This document shows positions 7,577 to 55,781 of a stretch of 64,000 nt of DNA, piece after piece. The DNA comes from a virus (lineage: Duplodnaviria > Caudoviricetes). The stretch's first letter is position 1, and each line of letters begins with the position of its first letter. Position numbers and translations under genes: made by a program. Where the stretch lies: positions 481,323-545,322 of IMG/VR virus record IMGVR_UViG_3300037484_000435. One strand, 5' to 3'. A model generated the notes under the pieces. That model had not been told where the DNA came from. It did not search any database and worked only from the letters and a program-made list of their open reading frames with translations.

Positions 7577-8531
7577 ATGGCTAAAGCAGAAACATTCAAA
7601 CCTATTATACACGCTGGGTATATGATTGAAGAAATACTTATGCGTAAAGAAAGTTTTAAAAGTTGGTGGGTTGTTTGGTACAATCACGAAACCATGGAAA
7701 GTGCTGGAATGGAGCACTTCGATTCCTTTGATGAAGCATCTAAGTGGAATGAGGAAAACCCCCCCAAGAAAATAAAGGAAGGGAACTTTACCAGAGCTAC
7801 AATCATATTTGCGGGTTACTAAAAGGAGTTGTAGATGTTCAAAAGCACTTGGTATGAAGGTGAAGGCGATGACATGCAACGCGTTTCGGCCAAAGAGGCC
7901 AACGATGTAGCGTTCTGCACAGAATTCAATAACGAGCAGTTTCTTCGGGTGGCAGTCTGTGATGTGACTGACCAAGGTCTACCCCTGCCAGCCCCCCATG
8001 TCGTTATAGAAGTGGAAGGGAATTTGTACTGGGAAGGATATATAGACGACCTAAAGGATTTACTCAAAAGAAACACACAGCAAGCCAAGAGCTTGTCAGA
8101 TTAAACGGAGCAATTGTATGACAGTTTTAGATAAGGATACAAACGAAACAACCAAACAGGCTGTTATCAGCACGATCCGTAATACCGTAACGGGTATCCG
8201 CGAGGAATGGGGACGCCTGTTTGGAAAGACTGATGACGTTCATTGGGCCCTCTCAAAGGTGCTAGATGAATTAGAGAAATACAACACCGAGTATCATTCA
8301 TGGGATTGGGCTATCCAAAAACTTCAAGAAGGGAAATATGTAACGTGGATAAACTGGTCCCGCGACAGTTTTCTTGCACTGTCGAATGGACTTTTCACCA
8401 GATATAGTATATTCGATGGTAAGCCCAGATGCATGGGAGACTACCGGTTTGACGTGAGCAAGTTTACCCAAGACGGATGGACTTTATGGGAACCAAGAGA
8501 TGAAATTAATAACGAAAGAACTAATTGCTAA
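7577..8531 (+). other. Three hypothetical CDS (7577-7822, 7835-8104, 8118-8531)
   Basis: Each has an RBS; last has a DUF2829-like WAIQKLQEGKYV segment. Confidence 0.6.
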
Positions 8532-8823
8532 ATTCAAAAAACAAGGTGATACCTCTACGAGGAAAGCAGAAAACATAACTGTAATTGCTAAATTCTTTTG
8601 CCCGTGGGGCTCAGCCACATGGTTTGCTACAGACTATTTCCCAAACGACAATACTTGTTTTGGCTATGCCAACGTCTTGGGAGACGACTGTGCTGAACTG
8701 GGTTATTTCAGTATTGATGAGTTGGAAGAACTAACAGGTCCAATGGGACTTAAAATTGAACGTGACCTTTATTGGAAAGAACGAACACTCCAAGAGGTTA
8801 TGGACTGTAAAGGACATTGCTAA
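8500..8823 (+). CDS. DUF2958-family protein
   Basis: KFFCPWGSATWFATD...CFGY...ELGYFSIDEL...IERDLYW. Confidence 0.75.
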   Translation: MKLITKELIAKFKKQGDTSTRKAENITVIAKFFCPWGSATWFATDYFPNDNTCFGYANVLGDDCAELGYFSIDELEELTGPMGLKIERDLYWKERTLQEVMDCKGHC

Positions 8824-9533
8824 TGAACGGAGAAGACATAACTAAAGAATTTGAATGGCAAGACTCACCAGAACCAAATTACTGTGACAAAAAGTGTGAC
8901 CCACGTAACTGTAGTGCCTTGACTCTAATGCTTGAGGTGTTACACGAATACTTTGTTACGTGCGACGGACAAAAGGAGAGGCTCGTCGGAGCTAAACTGT
9001 GGTCCATTATAAGTGTGTACGTGATTCGACCCGAGATTACCGAAGAGCAGAAAGCGTGGGCCACTAAAGCATTTAGAGAATTAGCTAATAAAACGTTTGA
9101 TGACGTAGCTGATCGACACAATTACGGCCCCGACCCTAACTCGGAGAAGAAATGGTAAGAGGAAAAGGCTATGGGACGAATTACTAAATTGCTTAAAGAT
9201 ATACTGTATTCCGTAGAAAAAACAACATATGACCCACTGATGGTTTGTCTACTTGAAAAAACGGAAAAGAATATGTTACAGTGGTATAGAACCACTAAAG
9301 CTGACGGGAGCTACACCACCAAAGACGGAGACCTTACCTTTGAGATCAGACACTATAACGGTTATGAAGACGCATGGAGTGAGATCACCGTGAAGGACCA
9401 CGACAACGTTACAATTAAAACAATGTCCCATGGGGCTGAGCGTCTATACCAAATCCTATACAGACGAGAGATGGCCCCAATGTGGAAATACCAAACAGAA
9501 TGTGTAGATACTTACCTAAAAGAAAACTGTTGA
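8817..9533 (+). other. Two hypothetical CDS (8817-9158, 9171-9533)
   Basis: Coupled ORFs. Confidence 0.6.
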
Positions 9534-9575
9534 TAGTTTAACCTTCCTCATTCCTAATTTATATGGAGGTAACGT

Positions 9576-9800
9576 GTCAATTCCTTGTCTTTATGAGATA
9601 GACTTGAAAAAATTAAGTCTAATTGACTAGCCCCCACCCAATGAGTGGAAACGTTATTTAGGTCATGCTACCTGAAAATGCTCCTCAAGTTTTCAGCCCT
9701 AGCGTTTAGGATTAAACAGTTCTGAGAGGTAGGAACAGTGTTCTAAACTTAACAAGCCTTTATAACTGGGCGATGAGGCTCTAACCCTAAGTTGCATCAG
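9576..9800 (+). ncRNA. IscB omega RNA (HEARO)
   Basis: gtcaa...ttgactagcc...acgttatttaggtcat...attaaacag...aagcctttataac...ggcgatgagg directly upstream of iscB; 3' boundary approximate. Confidence 0.88.
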
Positions 9801-9822
9801 CAACAAGGAGTAAAAACTTATT

Positions 9823-11061
9823 GTGTTAGTTTATGTATTAAACAAATGTGGAAAGCCTTTAATGCCCACTACACCACCTAAGGCTAGAATTTTGCTTAAG
9901 GGAGGCAACGCTAAAGTTACCCGAAGAACTCCCTTCACCATACAATTACTCTATGGAAGTTCGGGCTATAAACAACCTATAATGTTGGGTGTAGATTCGG
10001 GTTACGAGCATGTTGGATTGAGTGCTATCACAGAGAAACAAGAATTATTTTCAGCAGAAGTTTTGCTTAGAAAAGACGTTTCTAAATTGTTAACAGAACG
10101 TCGTGCTTATCGTCGTAATAGGCGTGATAGGAAAGTTCGTTATCGTCAACCTCGGTTTCTGAACCGCGTTAGAACAAAACGTAAGGGCTGGCTCGCCCCC
10201 CCTATTCAGCACAAACTGGATAGCCATATTAAGGTAGTAAATAAAGTTTCTGAAATATTACCAATTACAAACATCATAGTAGAAGTAGCCAATTTTGATG
10301 TTCAGCGTATCAAGAATCCTGAGATTAAGGGTAAAGAGTATCAGGAAGGTGACCAGTTTGGTTTTGAGAACGTAAGGGCGTATGTATTGCACCGAGATGA
10401 GCACAAATGCCAGCATTGTAAAGGTAAATCTGGTAACAAACATCTTAATACCCATCACATTGTTTTCAGAAGCAAAGGAGGGAGTGATAGGCCCGATAAC
10501 CTTATTACATTGTGTAAAACATGCCACGACAAACAGCACAAGGGTTTAATCAAACTCAAGGTTAGCCATAGCCGTAGTTTTAAGACTGAAACTTTTATGT
10601 CTATTGTTAGGTATAAAATTGTTGAGCGATTACGTGAGTTGTATAATAACGCGGATACAACATACGGCTATATTACAAAGGCGTTACGTAAGCAGTTATT
10701 TTTAACTAAATCACATATTAACGATGCTTTCATAATTGCTGGGGCTAACATACAAATCCGCAATACCAAAAATTATCTAATTAAACAGGTTCGTAAACAA
10801 AATCGTAAACTATTCAAGGGTGCCCGTAGTCACACTAAGAACACTGCTCAAAGATTTCTCTTCGGTTTTCAACGTTATGATAAAGTAAAGTTTAATAACA
10901 AAGATTATCACATATTCGGAAGAAGGCAGAGAGGGTGTTTTAAACTAAGTAATCTAGAGTCAGGACTCTTAAAAACTGAACCCACCTATAAGAAACTAAA
11001 ACTTCTGGAAAGCTTCAAAACATTTTTATGGGAGGTAAAGATGGTCCCTAACAATGTTTAG
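9823..11061 (+). CDS. iscB: IscB RNA-guided endonuclease (RRXRR/HEARO-associated)
   Basis: PLMP motif, RuvC-I LGVDSG, Arg-rich bridge helix, RuvC-II IVEVANFD, HNH HHIVFRSKGGSDRPDNLITLCKTCHDKQH, RuvC-III SHINDA. Confidence 0.95.
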   Translation: MLVYVLNKCGKPLMPTTPPKARILLKGGNAKVTRRTPFTIQLLYGSSGYKQPIMLGVDSGYEHVGLSAITEKQELFSAEVLLRKDVSKLLTERRAYRRNRRDRKVRYRQPRFLNRVRTKRKGWLAPPIQHKLDSHIKVVNKVSEILPITNIIVEVANFDVQRIKNPEIKGKEYQEGDQFGFENVRAYVLHRDEHKCQHCKGKSGNKHLNTHHIVFRSKGGSDRPDNLITLCKTCHDKQHKGLIKLKVSHSRSFKTETFMSIVRYKIVERLRELYNNADTTYGYITKALRKQLFLTKSHINDAFIIAGANIQIRNTKNYLIKQVRKQNRKLFKGARSHTKNTAQRFLFGFQRYDKVKFNNKDYHIFGRRQRGCFKLSNLESGLLKTEPTYKKLKLLESFKTFLWEVKMVPNNV

Positions 11062-11081
11062 GTAGACCATTACACAAAGGT

Positions 11082-11282
11082 ATGGATTGGCAGATTGGAG
11101 ACATAGCAGTTATTGACCAAGATTATGATCGCTCAGCAAGCGACAGTCTATTCTATTTACTGGAGTTCTCGAACGATACAGCAAGTGGTTACCTAGAAAA
11201 AGATAATCAGAAAATCGATTATTCCTGCCCCATATCAAAAATCAGAAGAGTTGCAAAAGTAATAAAGTTCCACACACAATAA
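11082..11282 (+). CDS. Small hypothetical protein
   Basis: ORF starting ATGGA right after the IscB element. Confidence 0.6.
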   Translation: MDWQIGDIAVIDQDYDRSASDSLFYLLEFSNDTASGYLEKDNQKIDYSCPISKIRRVAKVIKFHTQ

Positions 11283-11302
11283 CAAACAGAAAGGATGGGT
11301 CT

Positions 11303-11971
11303 ATGGCTCTTAAAGTTGGCGTAATCGGAGGCACATTCAATCCTATTCATAACGGACATTTACGGCTGGCGGAAGTCATGCTGGAGGCAGAGAAATTTGA
11401 TAATATTATTTTTGTTCCCTCTTTTAACCCGCCCTTAAAAGACCAAGACATCGTTTCCTTTGACCAGAGAGTGAGCATGCTTCAACTTGCCATAGAGGAC
11501 AATCCCTCCTTTGTAATCTCTACAATTGAACAAGACCTCTTAGGAAAATCCTATACCTTCAACATGCTACAAAAACTAATAGAAGAGTCCCCCAGTGTAG
11601 AGTTTACTTTTATCCTCGGGGCCGAGTGTTGGAATCAGATGAAGTCTTGGTATAAACCCATTGAAACTCTCGGTCTCTGTGATTTCCTGTTTGTGTGTGA
11701 TTCTGAACGAAGGTGTGCTGGGGATATTGCTTGGTCTGAGGGCGACCCGATGGTAAGACAGGCTCTTGGGGTAGTGCATAATAACAAGAAAGAATTTGTG
11801 CATCCCTCAGGAACTCGGGTAAGGTTCGAGGTTCACCCAACCCCTAAGATACGATCGACAGAGATAAGGTGGATATGTGCAAAGGGAAAAAGTTGTAGAT
11901 ACCTTCTACCAGAGAGTGTCTACAAATATATTCTACAACACAGGCTTTATAATTTATCCCAAAAGTTTTAA
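11303..11971 (+). CDS. nadD: Nicotinate-nucleotide adenylyltransferase
   Basis: GVIGGTFNPIHNGH (HIGH-like), FILGAE, IRSTEIR (SST-like), YLLPESVYKYI. Confidence 0.92.
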   Translation: MALKVGVIGGTFNPIHNGHLRLAEVMLEAEKFDNIIFVPSFNPPLKDQDIVSFDQRVSMLQLAIEDNPSFVISTIEQDLLGKSYTFNMLQKLIEESPSVEFTFILGAECWNQMKSWYKPIETLGLCDFLFVCDSERRCAGDIAWSEGDPMVRQALGVVHNNKKEFVHPSGTRVRFEVHPTPKIRSTEIRWICAKGKSCRYLLPESVYKYILQHRLYNLSQKF

Positions 11972-12027
11972 TTAACTTTCTAACTAAAATAGCTACTAAA
12001 GTTATCTTACACGGAGTTATTTTGTAG

Positions 12028-13113
12028 ATGATTGTGAAACATGCCTATAAATATCACATATACCCTAATACTGACCAAAAGAAACAACTTGAATCTTACT
12101 TTGGATGTTCTAGGTATGTCTATAATCATTATTTAAAACAAAGAATTGATTGCTATATGTTGCACAAAGTCGGTCTCGGGTATGTGGACAACTGTAGTGA
12201 CCTAGTATTTCTAAAGAGACAAAAGCCTTGGTTGTCTGAAGCCATCGCTCAGTCATTACAGGCATCACTCAAGGATCTTGAATCAGCTTACACTAATTTT
12301 TTTAGAGGGACCACAAAATTTCCGAGTTTCAAGAAAAAACACAACAAACAAAGTTTTCGTGTTCCCCAAAAATTCAAGGTCAATTCCACTTCAATTACTA
12401 TCCCTAAGGTGGGCAAGATCAAAGCCAAAATACATCGTCCAATAGGAGACAAGATCTGCAATGTTACTATTAGTAAAACTCCTGCAGGAAAGTATTATGC
12501 TTCTGTGTTATGTGAAGTTTATATTGAGGATCCAAAATTTGAAGGCAATATAATCGGGATCGATTTGGGGATTAGAGATTATTTGGTTGACAGTAATGGG
12601 AATCGCGTCCCTAACCCGAAATATCTTCAAAAGTCCTTAGTGAAGCTTAAACGACTCCAACAAATACTAAGTAGCAAAGTTCAAGGTTCTAGTGATTACC
12701 ATAAATTACGGCGTAAGCTTGCGAAACTACACGAAAAGATTCAGAACCAACGTTCAGATTTTCAGCATAAACTTGCTTTACAACTGGTGCGTGAAAACCA
12801 AACCATCTGTTGTGAAACTTTAGCTGTAAAGAGGATGTTGACTGAGTCTGATCCAGTGCTAGCCAGATACATTTTAGATGCAGGATGGTACCAGTTCATT
12901 TCTTTTTTGAATTACAAAGGACCTTGGTATGGTTGCCACATAAATCAAATAGAGCAGTTTTATCCTAGCAGTAAACGGCATTTCGAATGTGGTTATATTA
13001 ATGAACATCTAAACCTTTCTGATAGAGAGTGGTTATGCCCACAATGTAACTCGATGGTTGATAGAGACCTTAATGCTGCTAAAAATATTCTCGCCGCGGG
13101 GACCGCGGTTTAA
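12028..13113 (+). CDS. tnpB: IS605-family TnpB with N-terminal HTH
   Basis: AYKYHIYPN...FGCSRYVYN, RuvC-I IGIDLGI, RuvC-II CCETL, H/CxxC zinc finger, DRDLNAAKNI. Confidence 0.93.
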   Translation: MIVKHAYKYHIYPNTDQKKQLESYFGCSRYVYNHYLKQRIDCYMLHKVGLGYVDNCSDLVFLKRQKPWLSEAIAQSLQASLKDLESAYTNFFRGTTKFPSFKKKHNKQSFRVPQKFKVNSTSITIPKVGKIKAKIHRPIGDKICNVTISKTPAGKYYASVLCEVYIEDPKFEGNIIGIDLGIRDYLVDSNGNRVPNPKYLQKSLVKLKRLQQILSSKVQGSSDYHKLRRKLAKLHEKIQNQRSDFQHKLALQLVRENQTICCETLAVKRMLTESDPVLARYILDAGWYQFISFLNYKGPWYGCHINQIEQFYPSSKRHFECGYINEHLNLSDREWLCPQCNSMVDRDLNAAKNILAAGTAV

Positions 13114-13160
13114 AGCCAGTTAATACTGGAAATTATTATCCTTGGATGATAATAGTCCAC
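13090..13160 (+). ncRNA. 3' part of TnpB reRNA / right end (5' boundary approximate)
   Basis: 10-bp hairpin attattatcc-tt-ggatgataat then AGTCCAC, paralleling TAGTTGAC of the first TnpB. Confidence 0.55.
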
Positions 13161-13206
13161 CTCGTGCCTGAGCCCGTGTATATATTTATAAAAGAAAAGA
13201 AATTAT

Positions 13207-14865
13207 ATGCGGGCATGTACACATAAGAAAGGAATCACAATGCTACCCACAAAAATCCTAGCAGACGGGATTGAAAGAGCTTTTGAACACCGAAAGTTTC
13301 CATGGGATTTCTATTTTATCGCGATGGCAGAAGCTGATTGGCGGGCTGGTCGAGCAGATTTACCAGCAACCAAGAGTTTTTATATACGAAACGCTCCCTT
13401 TGGCGGAAGTTACTGTCTCCTTGGTGGTATCACTGAGGCTCTAGTAACTATTAAGAATCTGGATTTCCTCAGCAAAGATTTCTTTCACGGTGCTGTTCAT
13501 ATGGGCTCTTCTCCAGATTTTGTGAATTGGCTGGCTGTTCGAGAAAGGTTGCGTATTCGTGTTATTGGTGGGAGAGAGGGAACTGTGTTCTTCCCCAACG
13601 AACCTATCGTAACAGTACAGGGGCCATTAGCAGATATTCGTTTGGTTGAGGGTATTCTGACTTATGCCCTGAACTTTTCTTCTTTGTCGTTAACTAAGTG
13701 GTATCGAGTCGTAAAAGCGGCCCGCCCAGGACAAGTTTTGGATTTCTCTTTGAGAAGGGCACAGAACAGTAGACGTGCATCCCTGAACGCAATGCTGGCA
13801 GGATGCTCTGCCACATCTAACTGCGACATAGCAGAATTCTTTGACGTTCCCGTCCGAGGCACAATGGGACATGAATACCCAATGGGTCATGGAGACGTTA
13901 AGATAGCTTTTGAGCAGTGGTTGGAATATCAACCTAATCGACCTATCGGTTTGATTGACACCCTGCAATGCTTGGAGAACGACTTTCCTCTTTGGCTCGA
14001 CGCTGTATACAAATATCGGGAAAAGATTAAGAATGCAGGGTCTCCTATTTGGGGATGGCGAAATGATTCGGGTGACCTCGGTTACCTAACAGTTGAGCAA
14101 TACAGACGCTTCCTCAACCATGAGTTGGCAAAGGACGAATGGTTCCGAGAGCGGATGAGGGTTATTTTAACGAATGAGCTGGACGAGTATACAATCACAG
14201 CGATTATAAACCAAATAAGAGATGATGCTGAGCCCGCAGGTTTAGATGTCCATGATATCAAAAGTCGGATTATATGGGCGGCGGGCACGCGACCTGGAGT
14301 TTGCGAAGACCAGCCCTCTCTGGGCGGTGTAGCCAAACTTATGGAAGTAGACGGTTGTCCTACTCTTAAACCAGCATTGGATTCGGATGGACATCCTGGT
14401 CCCAAGACGTCGATACCAGGATTTAATCTATCGTGCTTGGTGCCCAATGGAGACAGCAGTATCGCATGTTGTCTAATATATCCTGCACATCATTATAATC
14501 TTGTGTCCGATGGAGCAGGTGGGTGGTCTTTACACAATAAAAAGACAAGCAAGACACCCAAAACAATAGTCACCATGCACAAGGATTCCAGCTCGTCTTT
14601 TATGGAGTTGAAAAATCAAGGTTTGATTGCACAGCAAGATTGCCTCTACGATTCTACCCAAGGTGCTTCCGTGCTAGGTGACGCGTGGCTGGAAACACTA
14701 GATGGAGTTACAAAGCGGATAGAAGATGGTATTGGTAGACTCCACTTCACAATGACATCGAGGCTGGTGAAGCCCCACAGTATGAAAGTATCGGTAACAC
14801 CCGACCTCTTTGAGCTGCGGGATTCTATGTTGAAAAATAAGACCTTGATGGGAGAGAAATCTTAA
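13207..14865 (+). CDS. pncB: Nicotinate phosphoribosyltransferase (likely start MLPTK)
   Basis: FYIRNAPFGGSY, DFSLRRAQ, GTMGH (phospho-His), LIDT, RNDSGDL, TNELDE, GGVAKL: Firmicute/eukaryote-type NAPRTase motifs. Confidence 0.85.
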   Translation: MRACTHKKGITMLPTKILADGIERAFEHRKFPWDFYFIAMAEADWRAGRADLPATKSFYIRNAPFGGSYCLLGGITEALVTIKNLDFLSKDFFHGAVHMGSSPDFVNWLAVRERLRIRVIGGREGTVFFPNEPIVTVQGPLADIRLVEGILTYALNFSSLSLTKWYRVVKAARPGQVLDFSLRRAQNSRRASLNAMLAGCSATSNCDIAEFFDVPVRGTMGHEYPMGHGDVKIAFEQWLEYQPNRPIGLIDTLQCLENDFPLWLDAVYKYREKIKNAGSPIWGWRNDSGDLGYLTVEQYRRFLNHELAKDEWFRERMRVILTNELDEYTITAIINQIRDDAEPAGLDVHDIKSRIIWAAGTRPGVCEDQPSLGGVAKLMEVDGCPTLKPALDSDGHPGPKTSIPGFNLSCLVPNGDSSIACCLIYPAHHYNLVSDGAGGWSLHNKKTSKTPKTIVTMHKDSSSSFMELKNQGLIAQQDCLYDSTQGASVLGDAWLETLDGVTKRIEDGIGRLHFTMTSRLVKPHSMKVSVTPDLFELRDSMLKNKTLMGEKS

Positions 14866-14926
14866 ACGCACGAATAGGTAAGGGCATTTTTTAATGTCCT
14901 TACCTTAACACACGAAAGGATTAGAC

Positions 14927-16783
14927 ATGACTACTACGAGGGTAGCGTTAGCACAAATAAACCCTACCGTTGGGGACTTTGACCTGAACAAAAGTCTCAT
15001 TCTAAACTCTTTGACCTTGGCCCAGCGCGCAGGATGCGACATAATCGTATTTCCTGAGCTTGTTGTTTGTGGCTATCCTCCAGAGGACCTGCTGTTGAAG
15101 CAATCCTTTTTGACAAAATGCCACGAAGCTGTGGAATCTATAGCAGAGGAAGCTACAGATATAGTTGCATTAGTGGGGTCCCCTTGGAAGTTCAATTGGG
15201 GTAAACACAGACACGAATTCAATAGAAATGGGGAAGAACTCTACAACGCGGCAGTAATCTTGGCTGATGGTAAAGTGCAAGATGTCTACTTCAAAACTGA
15301 ACTCCCCAACTACGGTGTGTTTGATGAGAAGAGATATTTCTCTCGACTCGAAACACCCGAGTGTTTAGTGTTTGTCATGAATGGTGTCCGTTTTTGTATT
15401 ACCATTTGTGAGGATATCTGGGTCGAGCAGTCTCCTGTGAGAACACTCGCAGCAATGAATAACGTGGATGTCACGTTAAACTTGTCCGCTTCTCCTTTCT
15501 TCGCAGGCAAATTAACTACGTCCCGTTACGAAGCATTGTCCCAGTATTGCCTGAAAACTGGCACTTCCCTGATATATACAAATTTAATCGGGGGACAAGA
15601 TAGCCTAATCTTTGATGGTACTAGTCTAGTGATGGACCATCGTGGTAAGATTCGTTACGTAGCAAAAAGATTCGAGGAAGATTTTTTGGTAGTGGACCTA
15701 GATGAAAGCTTTATGAAGAACAAGACTGAGGGGTATATGTTCCGTGACTACTACTCTACCACGTCTTCCATTGAAAGGGACTTTGCTCAGAAGTTTGAGA
15801 CCATTGGCAACGCGAAATCCACAATTCAACCTGATACTCCACAACAACATGGACCATTTGATGATTTTACGGATGTTCTGCGTGGGCAAACTGAGGTAGA
15901 AGAAGTCTACTTGGCTTTAAAGAGGGGCCTTATAGATTATGTTGACAAGAATGGATTCCCTAAAGTTGTTGTTGCTGTGAGTGGTGGTATTGACTCAGCG
16001 GTCACTCTTGCACTCGCTGTAGAAACCTTGGGGATCAACCGAGTAGTTGGTATAACGATGCCTTCCAGAATTACATCTGACGATACGCAGGACGATGCAG
16101 TAACGCTGATGGAAAACTTTGGAATTCAGCAAGACACAATCCATATTGAACATCTTGTTAATATGTATATTGAGTCTATTGCACATAGTAAAATCTGGGC
16201 TAATGCACTAGAAGAAAATCCTGTGGTGTGGGAAAACATTCAAGCACGTATCAGGGGTAACGTCTTGATGGCACTCTCCAATCAGTTCGGTTGGTTGGTC
16301 CTCTCCACAGGCAACAAGAGCGAGACCGCAGTTGGATATTGCACCCTATATGGGGATATGGTAGGAGGATTCTCTATCCTAAAAGACGTTTACAAGACGT
16401 TGGTTTACAAAATTGGCCATTACATCAATATGAAGCGCCATGAGAGGGGTCTTCTTGGGATCCCCATAAGTACTTTTGAAAGGCCACCTAGTGCGGAGTT
16501 GGCCGAGGGACAAACTGACGAGGAAGTGTTGGGTCCCTACAGTGTTCTGGATAAAGTTCTCGAAGCTTACATTGAGAAAGAGATGTCCGTAACGGAAGTA
16601 AAGGAATTCTTTGGGGCATTGGCCTTTCCTCCCTTAAAAGACATGAAAGCATATGTTGAAAAGATTGTAAGGATGGTAGACCGAAACGAATACAAACGTC
16701 GACAAAGTTGTCCTGGTGTGAAAATAACTCCGAAAGACTTTGGGAAGGATAGGCGTCTACCAATAACAAACGCCTATATTTAA
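14927..16783 (+). CDS. nadE: Glutamine-dependent NAD+ synthetase
   Basis: Nitrilase triad FPEL / KTELPNYGVFDEKRYF / ICEDIW; synthetase SGGIDS, NIQARIRG, TGNKSE, TLYGDM, PPSAEL. Confidence 0.95.
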   Translation: MTTTRVALAQINPTVGDFDLNKSLILNSLTLAQRAGCDIIVFPELVVCGYPPEDLLLKQSFLTKCHEAVESIAEEATDIVALVGSPWKFNWGKHRHEFNRNGEELYNAAVILADGKVQDVYFKTELPNYGVFDEKRYFSRLETPECLVFVMNGVRFCITICEDIWVEQSPVRTLAAMNNVDVTLNLSASPFFAGKLTTSRYEALSQYCLKTGTSLIYTNLIGGQDSLIFDGTSLVMDHRGKIRYVAKRFEEDFLVVDLDESFMKNKTEGYMFRDYYSTTSSIERDFAQKFETIGNAKSTIQPDTPQQHGPFDDFTDVLRGQTEVEEVYLALKRGLIDYVDKNGFPKVVVAVSGGIDSAVTLALAVETLGINRVVGITMPSRITSDDTQDDAVTLMENFGIQQDTIHIEHLVNMYIESIAHSKIWANALEENPVVWENIQARIRGNVLMALSNQFGWLVLSTGNKSETAVGYCTLYGDMVGGFSILKDVYKTLVYKIGHYINMKRHERGLLGIPISTFERPPSAELAEGQTDEEVLGPYSVLDKVLEAYIEKEMSVTEVKEFFGALAFPPLKDMKAYVEKIVRMVDRNEYKRRQSCPGVKITPKDFGKDRRLPITNAYI

Positions 16784-16909
16784 CAAGCATCCAATATAGT
16801 AAATGTGGGGAAACGTCGTATTCAATTCAGGAATAGACCCCCCCACTTACTTTTAACAAACCAAGAACGTATATTGATAAGGAAATAAGGAGGATGAATG
16901 TAATAAAAA

Positions 16910-17929
16910 GTGAAGAGCACAGAAGTTAAGGAGTGTCTTGAATGTGGTATAATTAAGACACGGGAAGAATTTAGTAAAAATGTTGCATCTACAGATGGCC
17001 TAAATTTAAGATGCAAAGAGTGTGACTCCGCTCTCAAAAGAAAACGTTACGCTGATAGGAAGATGGGCCCAGTTAGGGCGTGGAGTCAACCAAAGATAAA
17101 AGAGGGAGCTAAAGAATGCATTAAGTGCCATATATCAAAATTCTTACATGAGTTTGACCGAGGTTCCAATATGCGTGGTGGGAGACTAAACGAATGTAAA
17201 ACCTGTAGAAGTGCTTACAGGAAAATGTATAGAGATACAAATCCTGATAAGCTACTGGAGCAAGAACGGCGTTCTAAGAAATTACATATTCAAGCAATAA
17301 GAGACAGCGCAAAAGATTACTGCACCAGAAACAAAAACAAAATTAAGTTTTACAACAAGAAAGTACAGGAGGAATTTAGTAAAAAAGTGGCTCTGTTTCT
17401 TGGTGGCAAATGTGAAATGTGTGGGTTGGAAACAGATTGGTATGAGGTCTATGATTGTCACCATAAAAACTCTGAGGAAAAAATGTATAACGTGGCTAGT
17501 TTACGCCACAAGAATTGGACAACGATAGTTATTCCAGAATTACTGAAATGTTCCCTCGTTTGCCGTAACTGTCATAGAGTGTTAACACAACAGATCGCCA
17601 GATCAAAGCCCAACAGAGAAAAATATTGTGATTATATGGATAACAGACGGGACAATCATAAACAAAAATGTGTCGACTACGCGGGTGGTGAATGCCAAAT
17701 ATGTAACTTGAGAACAACAAACTACGCTGTGTATGATTTCCACCATGTGAACCCAGCAACTAAAATATATAATATTGGGCCTCTTAATTCCAAAGATTGG
17801 GAGGAGGTCGTTCAACCTGAGCTTAACAAGTGTGCCTTGTTATGTGCTAATTGTCATGTATCCCTACACACAGGACGCCATAACAGTCTAACTTTAATTG
17901 CTGGACCAATAAAAATCATAACTGACTGA
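16910..17929 (+). CDS. Free-standing endonuclease with two tandem HNH domains
   Basis: Two N-terminal CxxC...CxxC repeats; two GGxCxxC...D(C/F)HH...ELxKCxLxCxNCH units. Confidence 0.85.
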   Translation: MKSTEVKECLECGIIKTREEFSKNVASTDGLNLRCKECDSALKRKRYADRKMGPVRAWSQPKIKEGAKECIKCHISKFLHEFDRGSNMRGGRLNECKTCRSAYRKMYRDTNPDKLLEQERRSKKLHIQAIRDSAKDYCTRNKNKIKFYNKKVQEEFSKKVALFLGGKCEMCGLETDWYEVYDCHHKNSEEKMYNVASLRHKNWTTIVIPELLKCSLVCRNCHRVLTQQIARSKPNREKYCDYMDNRRDNHKQKCVDYAGGECQICNLRTTNYAVYDFHHVNPATKIYNIGPLNSKDWEEVVQPELNKCALLCANCHVSLHTGRHNSLTLIAGPIKIITD

Positions 17930-17956
17930 TTTCACAAAGAAGAGAAAGGGTATCTG

Positions 17957-18838
17957 ATGGAATTAGATATCAGAAATGTTGGATTGATTGTCAAACGAAA
18001 TGACCCACAAGCTATGGGACTTGCACAAAGGGTAATAAACTATATCCTAGACAATAAGCCTTGGGGTATAAACATTCCCCTATCGGACTGCGTGGATATA
18101 CCCAATTACACAAGAGTGAACACACATTTGGAAGAAGATATGTGCCGTTACTCAGACATCCTCATCGTTTTGGGTGGTGACGGAACCATGTTGCAGGCCG
18201 CGTCCTACACCCTACCCAATAAAAGCGTGCCTGTTCTGGGTATTAATCTGGGGAGAGTAGGGTATCTATCAACGATTCCTCCTGAAAGTGTTTTTGATGA
18301 ACTAGATAAACTCTCCAGCGGGTTTGTCAACGTCTACGCACAAAGGAAAATGCTTTGCGTTAACAACCCCGAAAAGGAAGGAGTTTTCTACCCTGTTCTC
18401 AATGAGGTGGTGCTACACTGGTCACAAAAGGCTAGGTTGATTAACCTTTTTCTTTCGATACAAGGTGATGGACAGTTTGAGGTTAGAGCAGACGGAATCA
18501 TCATTTCGACTCCTACTGGTTCCACTGCCTACAATTACGCGGCGGGCGGGCCACTAGTGCACCATGACGTGGGAGCCTTGATAGTAACGCCTATTTGTCC
18601 GTTTTCTGGCCTAAAAGGGTCGTTAATGCTACCTATGTCCTCAACCCTGAAGATTAATTCCGACGAGAGGAACAGTCAAGTTAGTGTAACGATCGATGGT
18701 TATAGGGATTTTCCGTTGAAGTCAACCGATACCCTCTACATTGAGGAATACCCCACACCATTTGTTCTTCTCAATCCTAGGATTTCTAGCTATCTGGAAG
18801 TCCTACAAACAAAACTAAACGTTGTTGGAAAGGCATAG
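17957..18838 (+). CDS. nadK: NAD(+) kinase
   Basis: VLGGDGTML, GINLGRVGYL, LNEVV, DGIIISTPTGSTAYNYAAGGP. Confidence 0.95.
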   Translation: MELDIRNVGLIVKRNDPQAMGLAQRVINYILDNKPWGINIPLSDCVDIPNYTRVNTHLEEDMCRYSDILIVLGGDGTMLQAASYTLPNKSVPVLGINLGRVGYLSTIPPESVFDELDKLSSGFVNVYAQRKMLCVNNPEKEGVFYPVLNEVVLHWSQKARLINLFLSIQGDGQFEVRADGIIISTPTGSTAYNYAAGGPLVHHDVGALIVTPICPFSGLKGSLMLPMSSTLKINSDERNSQVSVTIDGYRDFPLKSTDTLYIEEYPTPFVLLNPRISSYLEVLQTKLNVVGKA

Positions 18839-18842
18839 TGTT

Positions 18843-19748
18843 ATGACTGAGCAATTAGTTTGTTTACGCGCTGACTCATGTGATCGGGGATGTTTCCACA
18901 AGCATCCACATGCACAGAACGAATGGTGTGGTAGGCAATGTCCAGACCATGATGAGGCAGAGTGTATACCGCTCCCCCTCACTCTACTACATGATGACGT
19001 GGAGGAAACAGATGAGTGAAGTTAGAATAATATGCTCACAAGTAGACAAATGTGGTAGACATTGCTCCCACAGGCATTTACATCTCGAAGTAATTAACTG
19101 CACACAAGAAGCATGTCCTAATTTTGACGGACAGGCTCTCTGTATCGTAGCTGAACCTACATTCTTGGGCGACCTTGTGGGGAGGAAGAGGATTAACATG
19201 CAAGTGATATGCCCTAAAGCTAATAGATGTAAAATTGGATTCTGTATACACAAAGTTCCCCATTTAGAGACGCCCGACTGTTTTAGGGGGTGTGCTAGCG
19301 AGGGAGCAGGCGCGTGTGTAGAACCAAAAACTACTTTTCTAGATGACTACACAGAGGAAGAGGATGGGTAATATGAAAGTAATTTGTGCGGAGGCAAGTT
19401 CGTGCAGATTCACATGTGTTCATAAACTTGCACACTACAAGCTATTCGATTGTAATGATAACTGTGACAATCATCCTAATGGCGTTGGTGCATGTATAAT
19501 AGTGGAGGGGTTTCCAACCATACTTTATGATGAAATAGAGGAGGAAGATGAGTAACGTACCCATAAAAACGGTAACCTGTCCCCGTGGTCACTCTTGTTA
19601 TGTAGTAAGGTGTAAGCACCAAGGACCACATTATGAAATAACAGCCGTGTGCTCCCAGAAGCGTAATGTTTGTACTGGTGCCATAGCAACAGGTATAGAA
19701 TGTAAACTTGCCCTGTTGGGCGACGAAATAGAGGAGGAAGATGGATAG
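18843..19748 (+). repeat. Tandem array of five paralogous ~55-65 aa Cys6His2 domains in four ORFs (18843-19019, 19012-19371, 19373-19555, 19548-19748)
   Basis: Shared pattern C-x5-C-x3/4-C-x-H-x3-H-x5/6-C-x3/6-C-x7/9-C then an acidic tail; overlapping stop/start junctions. Confidence 0.85.
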
Positions 19749-20391
19749 AATTAAATATCCGAGAACTCCCCACCTTCCTTGGTCTAGGGGGGCAACCAAT
19801 GATGATAGGGTGTTGTCCTCAGTAGACCACTTTGAAGGGAAGGAAATTGTTATAACAGAAAAGTGTGACGGGGAAAATTTTTCTCTCTACCGAGATTATT
19901 GTCATCCTCGTTCTACTACCTACTCCCCACACCCATCGCGGGATTGGATTAAGAAATTTCATGCACAAATACGACACGAAATACCAGAGGGATGGAGGGT
20001 CTGTGGAGAGAATTTGTTTGCAAAGCACTCAATTCATTATCGAAATCTTCATTCTTATTTTTATGCATACTCTATCTGGGATGACCAAAATATGGCACTC
20101 AGTTGGGACGAGACTACAGAATACTGTGAACTCATCGGAATCAGAACGGTCCCTCTTATACATAGAGGACTATTCCGAGAGGATAAGACAAGACATCTTC
20201 TATCAAGAGCAGTGGATTTTGAGGCTGTTGAAGGATACGTCATCAGATTGGCTTCATCTTTTGCTTTCAAAGATTTTTCTACGTCGGTAGCAAAATATGT
20301 ACGTGCCCGTCATGTACAGACGGATGACCACTGGATGTATCAGCCAGTAATCCCCAATTTATTAATGGAGAATAATGAGACCACCCAATGA
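19741..20391 (+). CDS. RNA ligase family protein
   Basis: KYPRTPHLPWS, motif I ITEKCDGEN, CGENLFAKHSIHY, EGYVIR, KYVR..HVQTD.HW. Confidence 0.85.
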   Translation: MDRIKYPRTPHLPWSRGATNDDRVLSSVDHFEGKEIVITEKCDGENFSLYRDYCHPRSTTYSPHPSRDWIKKFHAQIRHEIPEGWRVCGENLFAKHSIHYRNLHSYFYAYSIWDDQNMALSWDETTEYCELIGIRTVPLIHRGLFREDKTRHLLSRAVDFEAVEGYVIRLASSFAFKDFSTSVAKYVRARHVQTDDHWMYQPVIPNLLMENNETTQ

Positions 20392-23300
20392 AACACTACA
20401 GATAATTGAAAAAGAAATCACACACTGTGAGGAGTTTTGTAACCAATTCGACCGTTGTGCAAAGAGGGGAGAGCCCTTTAATCCCGATGTATTTAAGTAT
20501 TGGATTAACAAGCTTGCAATGCTAGAAGCATTTAAAGAAGTCATTTTAGGTAATAGAGATGACCTAGGAGGACTTAACCAAAATTTATTTGAAAGGAATC
20601 GAAATGCCTGAACTAACTAAAGAAGAATGGTTGGCATTGGCAAACTGCGTTTCTTCTGGGGAGATAGCTTTCAAAAAGCCCCTCAATGAATTAGTAAAAG
20701 AAATGCAGGTGTTGGATAAAGAAAATGAAATGCCTAGGCTACAGTGTTGTTTTACCACTGCAGGTAAATTCTTAATGGACAATTTCAAACCCGAGTGGAC
20801 TGAATAATAAAATTAGCTATAATAGAAGGAAAACAAAATGGAGACATCACCCTATGATTATTTGTTGTCGAATGCTATGTCCGTTTTGTCTGGAGACCAC
20901 GGGGCAGAGATACTCGCTGGTTTTTCTACCCAAGTTGGTTTCCTTAAAGAAGTGTGCAAAAATTGTTTAATTGATTGTTACGGATGTATTGAAGATTGCC
21001 CCCACCCAGAGTGCTGGCCTGACGAAACAATTATGTTTAGCCCCACCCAAGAGCGTGTGGCTCTAGAGGGGTTCGTTTTTGGTACAGGAGAGGACAGGGG
21101 AAAAATGGCAGGCTATTTAATTGTCCGAGACAAAAAAGAAAATAAAATTTATTCCCGACCGTGCGTAATTACTTTACCGCGTGATAATTAATTTCTTAGT
21201 AAAGACATCTAGTTATTAACTTTATTTTTTAGAGATGGATTTGTGTACTATATTAGTACTAGACGTCCAACAGGAAAACCTAGTTATTATCTAACAAGGG
21301 AAATTTTATTTTTTAATTAATAAAATTCCCTGAGAGGTTCGAGGGTAATACATAACAGAGTGCCGAGGAGCTCTCGCAGGTTTACTATTACAAATGACAT
21401 TTCTTGAAGTAATGACACAATTTATTATCCCTGAACGTAACACAGAAATTAAACGTGAAAAGTGGGATGAAAAGGAATGGTGGCATCTAAGTTCATATAA
21501 AATATACCACTTAACAAAAGAAGACATGGAAGCCACTGATTGGGAAATAAGGGAACGTAGACAGTGAAATTAAATATTGCTGTTAAAGAAAGAAAAGACC
21601 AGAGTCGCTGGGATTGTTTAGGTAAGGTGACCAAAGAATTACAGCGAGAAATAAAATCCAGAAATTTCAAAAATGAGGACTCTCTAGAAATGTCATTCGA
21701 CTCTTTGTGTATTGATGTGAGTATGCGTTTAGGAATAAACTTTGACATTATTGATGGGGAGTATATTTTTGATTTCACAAATTTGTGGAGTAACCGAAAT
21801 GAAACACAGGTTAACCATTGATGTTGGTTTGAGTATAGAGGATGACGACCTATCACAACGTGCTTTTACAGATTTGGTCTTGGTCGAAAGTGAATTTGAG
21901 GATAGACTACGAGAGGCTATAATGGGGTCTCTGTTACAATTGTTCAAATCAGTAAAAGTGGAGGACCTACAAATTTATTAATGTCTAAAGAAATCGAAAT
22001 AGTTGATAGGCATGCTTATCAAGAATTTATTTATTGTCCTTATTGCGGACATTGGCACGGGCAAGTCTCTGGGTGGGAAAACTGGGGAATGGTTTTTCAC
22101 GTAATATGCGAGAGATGCTCCTATGCTTTTGTGGTCAGCATTATACAGCTGGTGGTGCTGGATGAGGGAGACCGAGCGTGGTTAGGTATAGGGTTTGACT
22201 CAGAGCGGGATGACACACACTTTTTTAATCGAGACCAGTCGTTCAGTCCCACGGGAAGATTAGTAAAACACAACCCCCCTATACAAAATATTGCTAGGTC
22301 TCTCGCGGACGAACTCGATAAATTACTTTGGAGGTAAACATATGGTAGCACGTTGTAAGAAATGTGGCGAGCTGATTTGGGTGACTGCGGAAGAGGTAGT
22401 TGCCAGAAAGATTCTTAAGTGCGGACATTGTAATTTTCTAAACGAAAACCCCAGTTTCGATTCGATCCATGATTTTATCGAAGCCAATTCCCATCTGGAC
22501 GAGGAAGACCGCTAAGAGGAAACATATGAAAATCCCTAAATCACCAAAAGATGCGTTGAAAAAGAAATGGGCCACCAAAGCTAGTAAACTATTGGTGGGC
22601 AAGAAAATAGTAAGTGTAGAATATATGAACACAGCCGATCTAGAGGAGCTGGATTGGTACCGTGCCTCGCTGGTTATTACTCTGGATGACGGGACCAGTA
22701 TCTACCCATCCCAAGATGATGAGGGTAATGGTCCTGGGTCACTTTTCACCACAGATGAGAAGCTCCCAATAATCCCTGTGGTATGAACAGGAGCTACCAC
22801 GTATGAGTAAAATATACAGCATAGAAATAGAAACTCACCCAAGCATTGGCATGCGGGATGTTTCTGAGATTGTGGACGAGTGTATGTCGACCCTATACCC
22901 AACAATAGCAACCCATGTCAGGTTACTAGATATTACTGAGCGTGAAATTCCTGACGAGTTCGTCCTACGAGATATAGAGGAAGAATAATGGACAACATCT
23001 TTAGGACTTTCAAGAATGACCCTATGTGGTTTTGGTCTACGGACTTGTGCGACGTGGAGATGACATGCTCGGCGTGTCAAAAGAAAATTAAATTGGAGAG
23101 CAGATTCATTAAACCCCTGCTTCCTAAGAAAATCACATGTCCTTATTGTGACACAGTGCACGAAATACAGGGAATAGAAGACCCTAAATGACCCACCATC
23201 AATGAGGAGGATTGATGTTATCAGAACAAGACAAGAAAGTGTTGACAAAAGCTTTCAATCAAATACACAAGGAACTCGAAGTTATAAGGACTTTAACGGA

Positions 23301-44675: not shown

Positions 44676-44684
44676 GGAGACCCT

Positions 44685-45443
44685 ATGTCACCCAAAGCAT
44701 TGATAGTTGCTATTCTGGCAATTTTCGTGATAGGCTGTGAAGCGGGTCCTCCTGTGCAAACAAATACAGCACAAGCTGAACCTGTAGCCAAATCTACAAC
44801 CAAGAAACAAGTGTGGCCCGATGTTTTACAAAATGTGAAGGTTACCTCTATTTCCCCTAAACTTACTACCAAGAACTACGTATTGGTGTTTGATGGTTCT
44901 GGCAGTATGGCAGATTCTTGTGGTCGGATTACAGACCGTAAAATTGCGGTCGCTAAAGAAGCGGCCCGTGCTTGGATAAAGTCTGTACCAGCGGATGCCA
45001 ATGTTGGTCTGGTTTCGTTTCATAGCCAACAAGGACACTGGACTAAACTGTCCCTTTCTAAAGATCGTCAAGCTTTCGTTAACGCTATAAATTCTGTACG
45101 TGCAGGAGGGAACACTCCTCTCGCTACAGCGTTTAAGCAGGCATTTAGCGATCTGACCCTCGAGGGACAGGCACAGCTAGGTTACGGAGAATATGTTATC
45201 GTTACCATTACTGACGGGGAAGCGGATGATATTAAGGCCTTGAGTGAGTGGGTTGAGTATATCCTGAAGACTTCCCCTATACAGATATATACGATAGGCC
45301 TTTGTATAAAGGCTAATCACACCCTCTATCAACCAAAGAAAACAACCTACCGATCCGCTGAGAGCCCAGAAGAATTATCTAAAGGGCTACAGGATGTCTT
45401 GGCGGAATCTGAAGATTTCGTGATGCAAGACTTCAAAAAGTAA
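44685..45443 (+). CDS. vWA-domain lipoprotein
   Basis: Lipobox-like VIGC; MIDAS DGSGSM...GGNTP...ITDGE. Confidence 0.88.
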   Translation: MSPKALIVAILAIFVIGCEAGPPVQTNTAQAEPVAKSTTKKQVWPDVLQNVKVTSISPKLTTKNYVLVFDGSGSMADSCGRITDRKIAVAKEAARAWIKSVPADANVGLVSFHSQQGHWTKLSLSKDRQAFVNAINSVRAGGNTPLATAFKQAFSDLTLEGQAQLGYGEYVIVTITDGEADDIKALSEWVEYILKTSPIQIYTIGLCIKANHTLYQPKKTTYRSAESPEELSKGLQDVLAESEDFVMQDFKK

Positions 45444-45452
45444 AAAGGAGAC

Positions 45453-47012: not shown

Positions 47013-47031
47013 CAAAAAGTTAGGACACAAT

Positions 47032-47865: not shown

Positions 47866-47888
47866 CTTATAAGAAAGAAGGAAAAGAC

Positions 47889-49085: not shown

Positions 49086-49115
49086 TTAGTACTTCTCGAC
49101 AGAAAGGAATTTAGT

Positions 49116-54718: not shown

Positions 54719-55306
54719 ATGAAACCACAAGTCATTTCGGTGACAATATTTAAAGGACCTATGGCTAAAAGGGTGCGGAAGCATCAATTGGACTTTCAAC
54801 TCGGGCCTAACCTGATTATAGGCCCCAACGGAAGTGGTAAGTCATCAATATTTGACCTGCTAACCAATCCCTCAAAAGAAGTCAAAGAAACTGTAAAAGT
54901 CGAATCCGTTGCTGGAAAATTCTATAAATTTGACTTCGAGAAGGACAACCCACGTAAGGCTGGCTACGTGGATAAACTATTCCAAGTTGCTTCCATGTTT
55001 GCATCCCACGGCGAATCCAACCAAGCAATTATAAAGATGGTTGCTAAGGATGACGCGAAAGATTGTATAATTTTCATGGATGAGCCTGAACAGGCATTGG
55101 ACATGGAGGGGATTGAACTTCTCATAGAGTGTGTAAAGAGGTCACCTGCTTCGCAGATTATAATCGCAACACATCACCCCGCCTTGATTATGAGTGATAT
55201 GTTCCACGTTGTGGAGTTGGAGGATGGGTACCAAGACGAGGTAAGAGATTTTATCTTTAATCTTGCTGTAGAAGAAGGGTTTAGAAGGATACAACATGGG
55301 AAGTAA
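54719..55306 (+). CDS. ABC/AAA-type ATPase
   Basis: GPNGSGKS, SHGES signature, FMDEPEQALD, IATH. Confidence 0.85.
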   Translation: MKPQVISVTIFKGPMAKRVRKHQLDFQLGPNLIIGPNGSGKSSIFDLLTNPSKEVKETVKVESVAGKFYKFDFEKDNPRKAGYVDKLFQVASMFASHGESNQAIIKMVAKDDAKDCIIFMDEPEQALDMEGIELLIECVKRSPASQIIIATHHPALIMSDMFHVVELEDGYQDEVRDFIFNLAVEEGFRRIQHGK

Positions 55307-55781
55307 CAAATGTCCTAAATGTGGGGCTATCTGTGGGGACTACAGGAACCCGTTTCCTACTGTGGATATTCTCCTGCTACGTGGTCGCAGTATCGCGATT
55401 ATAAAAAGAAAGAATCCCCCTTATGGTTGGGCTTTGCCTGGAGGTTTCATTGATTACGGGGAAACCGCAGAACACGCGGCGATTCGTGAAACAAAGGAAG
55501 AAACTAATCTCGATATAGTAAACCCACAACTATTCGGAGTATATTCCGACCCCGCCCGCGACCCACGTGCTCATACGATGAGTATAGTTTACCACGCAAA
55601 AGCCGAGGGCGAGGCTAGGGCCCAAGACGACGCCACAGAAATAAAGTTTGTAGAGATTGAACATCTTGTATTCGGGGTCTTCGAGGGTGTTGTTACGTGG
55701 GATAAACCAACATTCGAATACGACTTAGCCTTCGACCACAAGAAAATCATAACAGACTTCTTTAACACGTTTTTCACATGA
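55296..55781 (+). CDS. NUDIX hydrolase (ADP-ribose pyrophosphatase-like)
   Basis: WALPGGFIDYGETAEHAAIRETKEETNL Nudix box; YSDPARDPR; LAFDH. Confidence 0.88.
   Translation: MGSNKCPKCGAICGDYRNPFPTVDILLLRGRSIAIIKRKNPPYGWALPGGFIDYGETAEHAAIRETKEETNLDIVNPQLFGVYSDPARDPRAHTMSIVYHAKAEGEARAQDDATEIKFVEIEHLVFGVFEGVVTWDKPTFEYDLAFDHKKIITDFFNTFFT

Follow-up and report, generated by a model that had tools for sequence, protein, structure and literature searches.

Introduction

The depletion of NAD is among the commonest strategies by which bacteria combat phages, and three phage-encoded routes rebuilding NAD have been experimentally proven, none of which proceeds via deamidated intermediates. Preiss-Handler gene sets of huge phages have been catalogued, and the question of whether such enzymes rescue phages from NADases or feed the NAD-consuming enzymes of the phage has not yet been asked. 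This question is raised by a cluster of NAD synthesis genes (nadD, pncB, nadE, nadK) located on a 64,000-nucleotide stretch of DNA (the window), which constitutes the final 64 kb of the 545,322-bp IMG/VR virus record IMGVR_UViG_3300037484_000435. Window coordinates refer to this stretch and genome coordinates to the whole record. As assumed in an earlier sequence-only reading of the window, the genome is that of a phage: the 545-kb virus record has a CheckV completeness of 100% and carries a large terminase gene. Here, we describe the enzymes of this cluster, together with a candidate nicotinamidase encoded elsewhere in the genome, and conclude that they likely constitute a phage-borne NAD(P) supply module.

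Four NAD enzymes are encoded by the cluster

The region between window positions 11303 and 18838 comprises six open reading frames (ORFs), all on the plus strand, and hidden Markov model (HMM) searches identified four of them as NAD enzymes. For NadD, the model TIGR00482 scored 145 bits (cut-off 112), Pfam returned a CTP_transf_like match and the top PDB matches were all nicotinate mononucleotide (NaMN) adenylyltransferases (NadD). Alignment to solved structures revealed the motifs GGTFNPIHNGH (HxGH) and IRSTEIR (SxTxxR), and the protein was classified as NadD-type NaMN adenylyltransferase. NadE reached 611.6 bits with NF010588 (cut-off 479) and matched the Pfam domains CN_hydrolase and NAD_synthase, which correspond to a complete nitrilase-type glutaminase and a PP-loop synthetase. 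Its SGGIDS motif is present and it was aligned to PDB entry 5KHA with an E-value of 1.1e-118, so that it belongs to the synthetases amidating deamido-NAD. The NAD kinase exceeded the cut-offs of both PF01513 (NAD_kinase) and PF20143 (NAD_kinase_C), and in the alignment to PDB entry 7MH7 (E 3.2e-35), the motifs GGDGTML, NEVVLH and TPTGSTAY of a two-domain NAD kinase were recovered. Thus, the four co-oriented enzymes with intact motifs that had been described from the sequence alone were found by HMM searches and PDB alignments alike, and the assignment to the deamidated Preiss-Handler route, extended by an NAD kinase, was confirmed, with NadD and NadE above their NCBIfam cut-offs and the phosphoribosyltransferase (PRTase) and NadK identified below theirs.

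Table 1. Features of the cluster and the distant Nudix gene (window coordinates; RBS, ribosome-binding site)
Feature	Position	Strand	Basis of assignment
nadD, nicotinate-mononucleotide adenylyltransferase, 222 aa	11303..11971	+	TIGR00482, Pfam, PDB
TnpB-only IS200/IS605-type element, lineage-specific insertion between nadD and pncB	11972..13239	+	NF040570, Pfam, relatives
pncB-type nicotinate phosphoribosyltransferase, 541 aa from likely start	13240..14865 (ORF open from 13207)	+	NCBIfam, PDB, context, RBS
nadE, glutamine-dependent NAD+ synthetase, 618 aa	14927..16783	+	NF010588, Pfam, PDB 5KHA
HNH homing endonuclease, lineage-specific insertion between nadE and nadK	16784..17956	+	phrog_2255, relatives
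nadK, NAD kinase, 293 aa	17957..18838	+	Pfam, PDB 7MH7, homologues
Stand-alone Nudix hydrolase, possible accessory	55296..55781	+	PF00293

The phosphoribosyltransferase is of the nicotinate type

The substrate class of the PRTase decides which intermediates the pathway involves. Its ORF is open from position 13207, and the true start is probably at position 13240 because a ribosome-binding site (AAAGGAA) precedes this position, the called product has 541 residues and the alignment to the relatives begins there. All 11 NCBIfam matches of the protein were nicotinate phosphoribosyltransferase (NAPRTase) models (best PRK09243.1-2, E 1.8e-70), and a phmmer search of PDB returned E. faecalis NAPRTase (2F7F) and human NAPRT (4YUB). 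When PDB was searched with a profile of 25 PRTase sequences, eight matches were obtained at E<=10, seven of which are named NAPRTase, while the eighth (2I14) is a nicotinate-nucleotide pyrophosphorylase. The profile covered 2F7F over the full length (E 3.2e-64) and matched human NAPRT at 1.4e-43; no Nampt was found among the matches at this threshold. The discrimination between NAPRTase and Nampt that the sequence-only reading had called for was therefore answered in favour of NAPRTase. The histidine of the GTMGHE motif is invariant across the family, and we take this residue to be the phospho-histidine position of PncB-type enzymes. Bacterial homologues sharing 40-52% identity are located in pncA-pncB-nadE-NrtR or NrtR neighbourhoods, a signature that would mark a nicotinate-salvage enzyme. 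Taken together, these data point to a PRTase of the NAPRTase type, and not to Nampt or a quinolinate phosphoribosyltransferase (QPRTase), with a predicted preference for nicotinate.

In a PRTase tree (calculated with FastTree only), the ten closest PRTases group in a single clade with a Shimodaira-Hasegawa-like (SH-like) support of 99, which is nested among bacterial sequences including those of Candidatus Saccharibacteria metagenome-assembled genomes (MAGs). The identity of the phage-clade PRTases to bacterial ones is at most 57%. This ten-member clade does not include the PRTases of Bacillus phage G or of three further IMG/VR contigs; the branch of the phage G enzyme is very long, which makes its placement unreliable. 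The separation indicates that pncB was captured by large phages more than once.

The four genes form a conserved operon in related megaphages

In related contigs, nadD, pncB, nadE and nadK are strictly contiguous and the genes either overlap or are 12-13 nt apart. The loci holding this operon belong to contigs of 84.9 kb and 381 kb, and the same PRTase proteins also occur on contigs of 647 kb and 658 kb; the PRTase homologues of the 658-kb and 647-kb contigs share 65-66% identity with the protein studied here. Over their whole length, the four NAD proteins are 45-66% identical to those of the relatives, and the flanks agree as well, with DUF2958 on the upstream side and genes for an RNA ligase and DnaJ on the downstream side. 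For NadK, the nine closest homologues (50-97% identity) share at least five contigs with the closest PRTases, and beyond these nine, NadK identity falls to about 40%, with bacterial proteins. Because the operon is contiguous in related megaphage contigs, the four-gene arrangement goes beyond chance, and a single nadD-pncB-nadE-nadK operon appears to be the ancestral state.

In this genome, the cluster is interrupted by a TnpB gene and an HNH gene, neither of which had been mentioned in the sequence-only reading. The TnpB ORF (12028-13113, 361 aa) scored 303 bits with NF040570 (guided_TnpB), which is above the cut-off, and matched OrfB_IS605, Cas12f1-like_TNB and a helix-turn-helix (HTH) domain in Pfam. 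This element is missing in the relatives, where nadD abuts pncB. A AATTAACT box at window position 11970-11977 lies ahead of the TnpB gene and shares bases with the nadD stop codon. The HNH ORF (16910-17929, 339 aa) matched the HNH endonuclease family phrog_2255 (E 2.2e-44) and is likewise missing in the relatives, in which nadE and nadK are spaced by 12 nt. Since the four genes of the relatives are contiguous, both genes are lineage-specific intergenic insertions.

The cluster gave no megablast match against the INPHARED phages. Searching viral contigs with the single PRTase as query yielded no related locus. An alignment query detected three, which are pncB-nadE pairs without nadD or nadK nearby.

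A candidate nicotinamidase is encoded outside the window

Nicotinate for the PRTase had been assumed in the sequence-only reading to come from nicotinamide via a host PncA, and it had been recommended to look for pncA elsewhere in the genome. When scanned with PF00857 (Isochorismatase), the genome yielded no canonical PncA, but a nicotinamidase-like protein of 354 residues is encoded outside the window (genome 19668-20732). Its family comprises over 2,800 proteins and is named nicotinamidase-related amidase or isochorismatase in some sources. With a family profile of 20 members, the best PDB match was M. tuberculosis PncA (E 0.0085), and this match involves three collinear blocks that span D8, the WPxH71 motif and C138 of the mycobacterial enzyme. 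D52, K213, C274, D100, H102 and H179 are invariant in the 20 family members. In the alignment to M. tuberculosis PncA, D52, H179 and C274 fall on D8, H71 and C138, and the equivalences of K213 and D100/H102 were assigned by motif inspection; together, these residues make up an Asp-Lys-Cys catalytic triad and an Asp/His metal site. The AlphaFold (AF2) model of the protein had a predicted local distance difference test (pLDDT) value of 88.8, and when it was compared with PDB by Foldseek, the top 11 matches were all nicotinamidases (best E 3.6e-9, target template modelling score (TM) about 0.76). The predicted fold is isochorismatase-like and lies nearest to the nicotinamidases. We have classed the protein as nicotinamidase-like and not as proven PncA because the curated family model was not matched. 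In our judgement, it is nonetheless a probable nicotinamidase, and if this holds true, a host PncA would not be needed and is likely unnecessary as nicotinate source.

The distribution of the family was also explored. In a bacterial MAG, a family member lies 2 kb from PncB, NrtR and ADP-ribosylglycohydrolase genes, and in Spirulina the gene context of a family member was uninformative. An 80% identical copy is carried by the 658-kb relative, and the family profile also matched LR756511 (595 kb; glutamine-dependent NadE) and a 467-kb IMG/VR phage (PncB and NadE). Three family members of about 580 residues (P0014, P0049, P0082) are about 235 residues longer and gave no Pfam match in either part; they appear to carry a fused domain of no known family.

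In the present genome, the nicotinamidase-like gene lies about 800 nt ahead of a NADAR gene (PF08719, E 1.4e-29). It stands in a row with a 101-aa ORF and this NADAR gene (genome 19668-21911; L006:669-2921), and further downstream come a SLOG-type gene resembling nucleoside 2-deoxyribosyltransferases and an archease gene. This region may be regarded as a small neighbourhood with an NAD/ADP-ribose theme.

Proposed pathway and other NAD-related genes

From these assignments, the following route can be proposed. The divergent nicotinamidase would probably convert nicotinamide to nicotinate, which PncB would combine with host phosphoribosyl pyrophosphate (PRPP) to NaMN. NadD would adenylate NaMN to deamido-NAD (NaAD), NadE would convert deamido-NAD to NAD+ with glutamine, and NadK would finally phosphorylate NAD+ to NADP+. 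In this way, the module would sustain the NAD(P) pool of the infected cell, whatever the drain.

Two drains, which are not mutually exclusive, may be considered: NAD consumption by the phage itself (DNA ligase, PARP, Tpt1) together with its NAD(P)-dependent sugar enzymes, and the NADase defences of the host. The genome encodes an NAD-dependent DNA ligase (LigA), a PARP, a Tpt1/KptA and four short-chain dehydrogenase/reductase (SDR) epimerase/dehydratase genes as NAD(P) users, and two NADAR genes (ADP-ribose erasers). Because the phage encodes NAD consumers of its own, self-supply would be at least as likely as an anti-defence role.

The Nudix gene listed in Table 1 is the sole PF00293 match in the 545-kb genome. 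Its best NCBIfam matches (about 1e-10, far below the cut-offs) were the Nudix halves of bifunctional nicotinamide-mononucleotide adenylyltransferase (NMNAT)/Nudix enzymes and NrtR/NtrR. It is possibly an ADP-ribose-type hydrolase closest to the Nudix domains of NadM-Nudix and NrtR proteins, and it could convert ADP-ribose to AMP and ribose-5-phosphate, which would feed PRPP synthesis.

Comparison with known systems

The published phage systems NARP1 (Adps, a PRPP-synthetase-like ADP-ribose pyrophosphate (ADPR-PP) synthetase, plus Namat) and NARP2 (Nampt plus an NMNAT of the NadM/NatV type, often fused to Nudix; bioRxiv 10.1101/2024.02.11.579819) were joined in 2026 by NARP3 (PnuC plus NadR; PMC13464706). 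None of their hallmarks was detected in the 545-kb genome. There is no Pribosyltran_N (Prs/Adps-like) match and the sole PRTase is of the NAPRTase type; there is no Nampt, and the PF01467 matches are limited to NadD and an RfaE-like gene, with the Nudix gene standing alone; and there is neither a PF04973 (PnuC) match nor a NadR-type adenylyltransferase. A second PRTase and an NMNAT/NadM were not found either. NARP1, NARP2 and NARP3 are therefore excluded because the genome lacks a Prs/Adps-like, a second PRTase, a NadR/NadM and a PnuC gene, and the distinction from NARP1 and NARP2 drawn in the sequence-only reading is borne out. Its designation of the cluster as a third pathway has been overtaken, since NARP3 is already published and the gene set is known from NAD-jumbo phages (PMC11662467) and phage G.

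As proposed here for the present module, NARP1-3 are phage-encoded routes that raise the NAD+ level of the infected cell, and nicotinamide, the entry metabolite of NARP1 and NARP2, is likely the entry metabolite here too. In contrast to the experimentally proven NARPs, the predicted module described here is deamidated and requires NadE, involves five enzymes instead of two and adds NADP.

Physical clusters of pncB, nadD and nadE were described in silico for jumbo phages in 2024 (PMC11662467). The so-called NAD-jumbo phages Kuafu_71 and Kuafu_19 are gut phages of Bacteroidota, and their NAD+ synthesis was read as independent (PMC11662467). With PncB, NadD and NadE on a 545-kb record, the phage studied here falls under the definition given there (>200 kb and all enzymes of at least one NAD+ pathway), and in NAD-jumbo phages, as here, the pncB, nadD and nadE cluster is accompanied by NAD-consuming enzymes. 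Whereas the present operon includes nadK, the main text of that paper names neither NAD kinase nor NADP. A 2022 survey of viral NAD and ADP-ribose systems was restricted to NadV, NadM and NadR (PMC9503650).

The closest cultured analogue is Bacillus phage G (NC_023719). According to its GenBank annotation, gp273-gp283 comprise, within 7 kb, a Nudix protein, an isochorismatase (gp275), NAPRTase (gp277), KptA (gp280), NadD (gp281) and an NAD synthetase (gp283); the PncA-like gp275 is discussed in PMC12484599. Like the present phage, phage G is a megaphage of about 0.5 Mb that has a complete clustered deamidated route (PncA, PncB, NadD, NadE) as well as Nudix and Tpt1/KptA genes in its genome. 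The two differ in several respects. In phage G, the cluster itself contains a short, canonical isochorismatase, whereas the nicotinamidase of the present phage is non-canonical and far away. The NAD synthetase of phage G is short (275 aa) and presumably NH3-dependent, whereas the enzyme described here is glutamine-dependent, and no NAD kinase match was obtained for phage G. With an identity of only about 28% and its very long branch, the phage G PRTase appears to have been acquired independently. The phage G annotation and the NAD-jumbo phages provide the co-occurrence of pncB, nadD and nadE in other phages for which a survey had been proposed, and a cultured phage with an analogous cluster is a potential test system.

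No NAD kinase was found in five other large phage records that were checked. NadE also occurs in Agrobacterium phage Atu_ph07 and in LR756511, in both cases with no pathway cluster next to it. In the cultured jumbo Sinorhizobium phage Phosso (PV764938), an annotated NAD kinase lies a few kb from NAD-salvage genes, but its neighbours are PnuC and NMNAT (NARP3-like) instead of Preiss-Handler genes, and the kinase does not share an operon with them. The bacterial pncA-pncB-nadE-NrtR regulons share the same three-step chemistry, with PRTase and NadE orthologous in type, and locus L010 has the genes in that order. Compared with these regulons, the phage operon lacks NrtR, includes nadD and nadK and relies on a non-canonical, distant nicotinamidase. 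The novelty of the present locus is thus modest: nadK inside the operon, a glutamine-dependent NadE and a Pfam-invisible nicotinamidase family that recurs in huge phages. It adds a compact, conserved four-gene operon predicted to reach NADP, and a candidate nicotinamidase family that would complete the route from nicotinamide.

Many INPHARED records named "Bacteriophage sp." (human-faecal) or "Listeria/Staphylococcus/Acinetobacter phage" (multi-contig) carry NadE, NadK or PncB. These records look like bacterial contamination, and counts of NAD genes in phages need care.

Weighing supply against alternative explanations

Several points weigh against an NAD(P) supply module. The enzymes were assigned by homology, and substrate preferences, flux, timing and biological role are deduced from these assignments. 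The PRTase stays below all NCBIfam NAPRTase cut-offs and matches NAPRTase_N as its only Pfam domain, the cut-off of the catalytic domain being missed, and the NAD kinase remains below every NCBIfam equivalog cut-off. For the 354-aa protein, neither a Pfam match (including direct hmmscan at E<=1) nor an NCBIfam match was obtained; its gene and the operon are about 65 kb apart even when a circular genome is assumed, and the protein is linked to the pathway by association. The operon is split by selfish elements in this genome, which might have perturbed co-expression. A search of sequencing runs located the sequence in one DNA run (sediment metagenome), with no RNA run listed.

Among the alternatives, the one that survives best is a dedicated counter-defence function. 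Here, NAD+ and NADP+ would be rebuilt after attack by host NADases (Thoeris ThsA, DSR1/2, SIR2-HerA, TIR/SEFIR), the released nicotinamide being recycled via the deamidated route in analogy to NARP1-3, and such a role would be compatible with the supply module. NAD reconstitution by other routes is proven to be anti-defence (bioRxiv 10.1101/2024.02.11.579819; PMC13464706), the probable nicotinamidase would permit a start from nicotinamide, which is the NADase product, and both the proximity of its gene to a NADAR gene and the presence of a stand-alone ADP-ribose-type Nudix protein fit this idea. On the other hand, the route is long (five enzymes plus PRPP, at least three ATP and glutamine), leaves ADP-ribose unused and would be slower and costlier than NARP1. 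The NARP1/NARP2 preprint and the NARP3 paper never mention phage NadE, PncB or NadD, no Tad2-like anti-Thoeris genes (PF11195) were found in the genome, and the several NAD consumers of the phage would by themselves explain a supply module. Because the long route lacks ADP-ribose recycling and a motive for self-supply is visible in the genome, we consider this function possible but rather doubtful. If it were true, it would enlarge the set of metabolites over which phages and hosts are known to compete; if it were false, the locus would be a further example of the auxiliary metabolic modules carried by giant phages. Still bolder is the proposal that the five enzymes represent a fourth class of phage NAD reconstitution, a deamidated one, which restores NAD+ and NADP+ after NADase attack, and that the nicotinamidase family is a recurrent counter-defence gene of huge phages. 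We regard this combination as unlikely at present and put it forward as a speculation.

The PRTase might alternatively use nicotinamide in functional terms (Nampt/NadV-like or Namat-like), so that the pathway would be amidated and NadE would do something else. The subthreshold NAPRTase scores and the lack of a significant Pfam match for the catalytic domain would accommodate such an enzyme, but the NCBIfam and PDB profile matches described above are almost uniformly NAPRTase, a Prs/Adps partner for Namat is missing, the gene shares its operon with NadE and a NadD-type adenylyltransferase, and its bacterial homologues adjoin canonical PncA and NadE. A nicotinamide-using PRTase is thus very improbable. 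We attach a similarly low probability to the idea that the genes of the operon were uncoupled or silenced when TnpB and HNH inserted, leaving a decaying relic. Two selfish elements do occupy what were formerly intergenic spacers of 0-13 nt, but the four ORFs are full-length with intact motifs and retain their similarity to the relatives over the whole length, and the intergenic position of the insertions is typical of tolerated homing elements. Finally, an origin of the region from cellular DNA (bacterial contamination or misassembly), for which one could quote that the nearest non-phage homologues are bacterial (Saccharibacteria, other MAGs), can practically be dismissed in view of the single complete virus record with its terminase, the recurrence of operon and flanks in independent assemblies (84.9-kb and 381-kb contigs) and the separate clade of the phage PRTases. 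An NAD(P) supply module therefore remains our preferred interpretation of the locus.

Additional observations on the window and its relatives

When window positions 8500-21500 were scanned with Rfam, HEARO was the only family detected, and neither an NAD riboswitch nor another family was found. A scan for sigma-70 promoters and terminators returned no more sites than shuffled sequence. Macro domain and dihydrofolate reductase (DHFR) genes were not found in the genome. The 126 nt that follow the TnpB gene (13114-13239) gave no Rfam match and may contain the guide-RNA scaffold of TnpB.

A complete IscB element is located on the plus strand 240 nt upstream of nadD (window 9576-11061). It consists of a HEARO/omega RNA (RF02033, 127.5 bits, 9576-9785) followed by the IscB ORF (9823-11061; NF040563, 377 bits). 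A second IscB is present at genome position 27.2-28.5 kb, approximately (L006:8237-9484), and the 647-kb relative (L009) carries a 57% identical IscB at the equivalent position.

The plus strand of window region 42960-50165 contains three large ORFs that are paralogues of one another and match phrog_25518 (unknown function); a gene for a TelA-like protein (phrog_5890) lies among them.

The present genome (window 19741-20391, plus strand; PF09414, E 1.2e-31) and both large relatives have an RNA ligase gene after nadK, and in other viral contigs (L016, L018), a gene for the RNA-repair nucleotidyltransferase RlaP precedes pncB-nadE. RNA-repair genes thus stand repeatedly side by side with NAD synthesis genes in big phages, which includes KptA within the NAD cluster of phage G.

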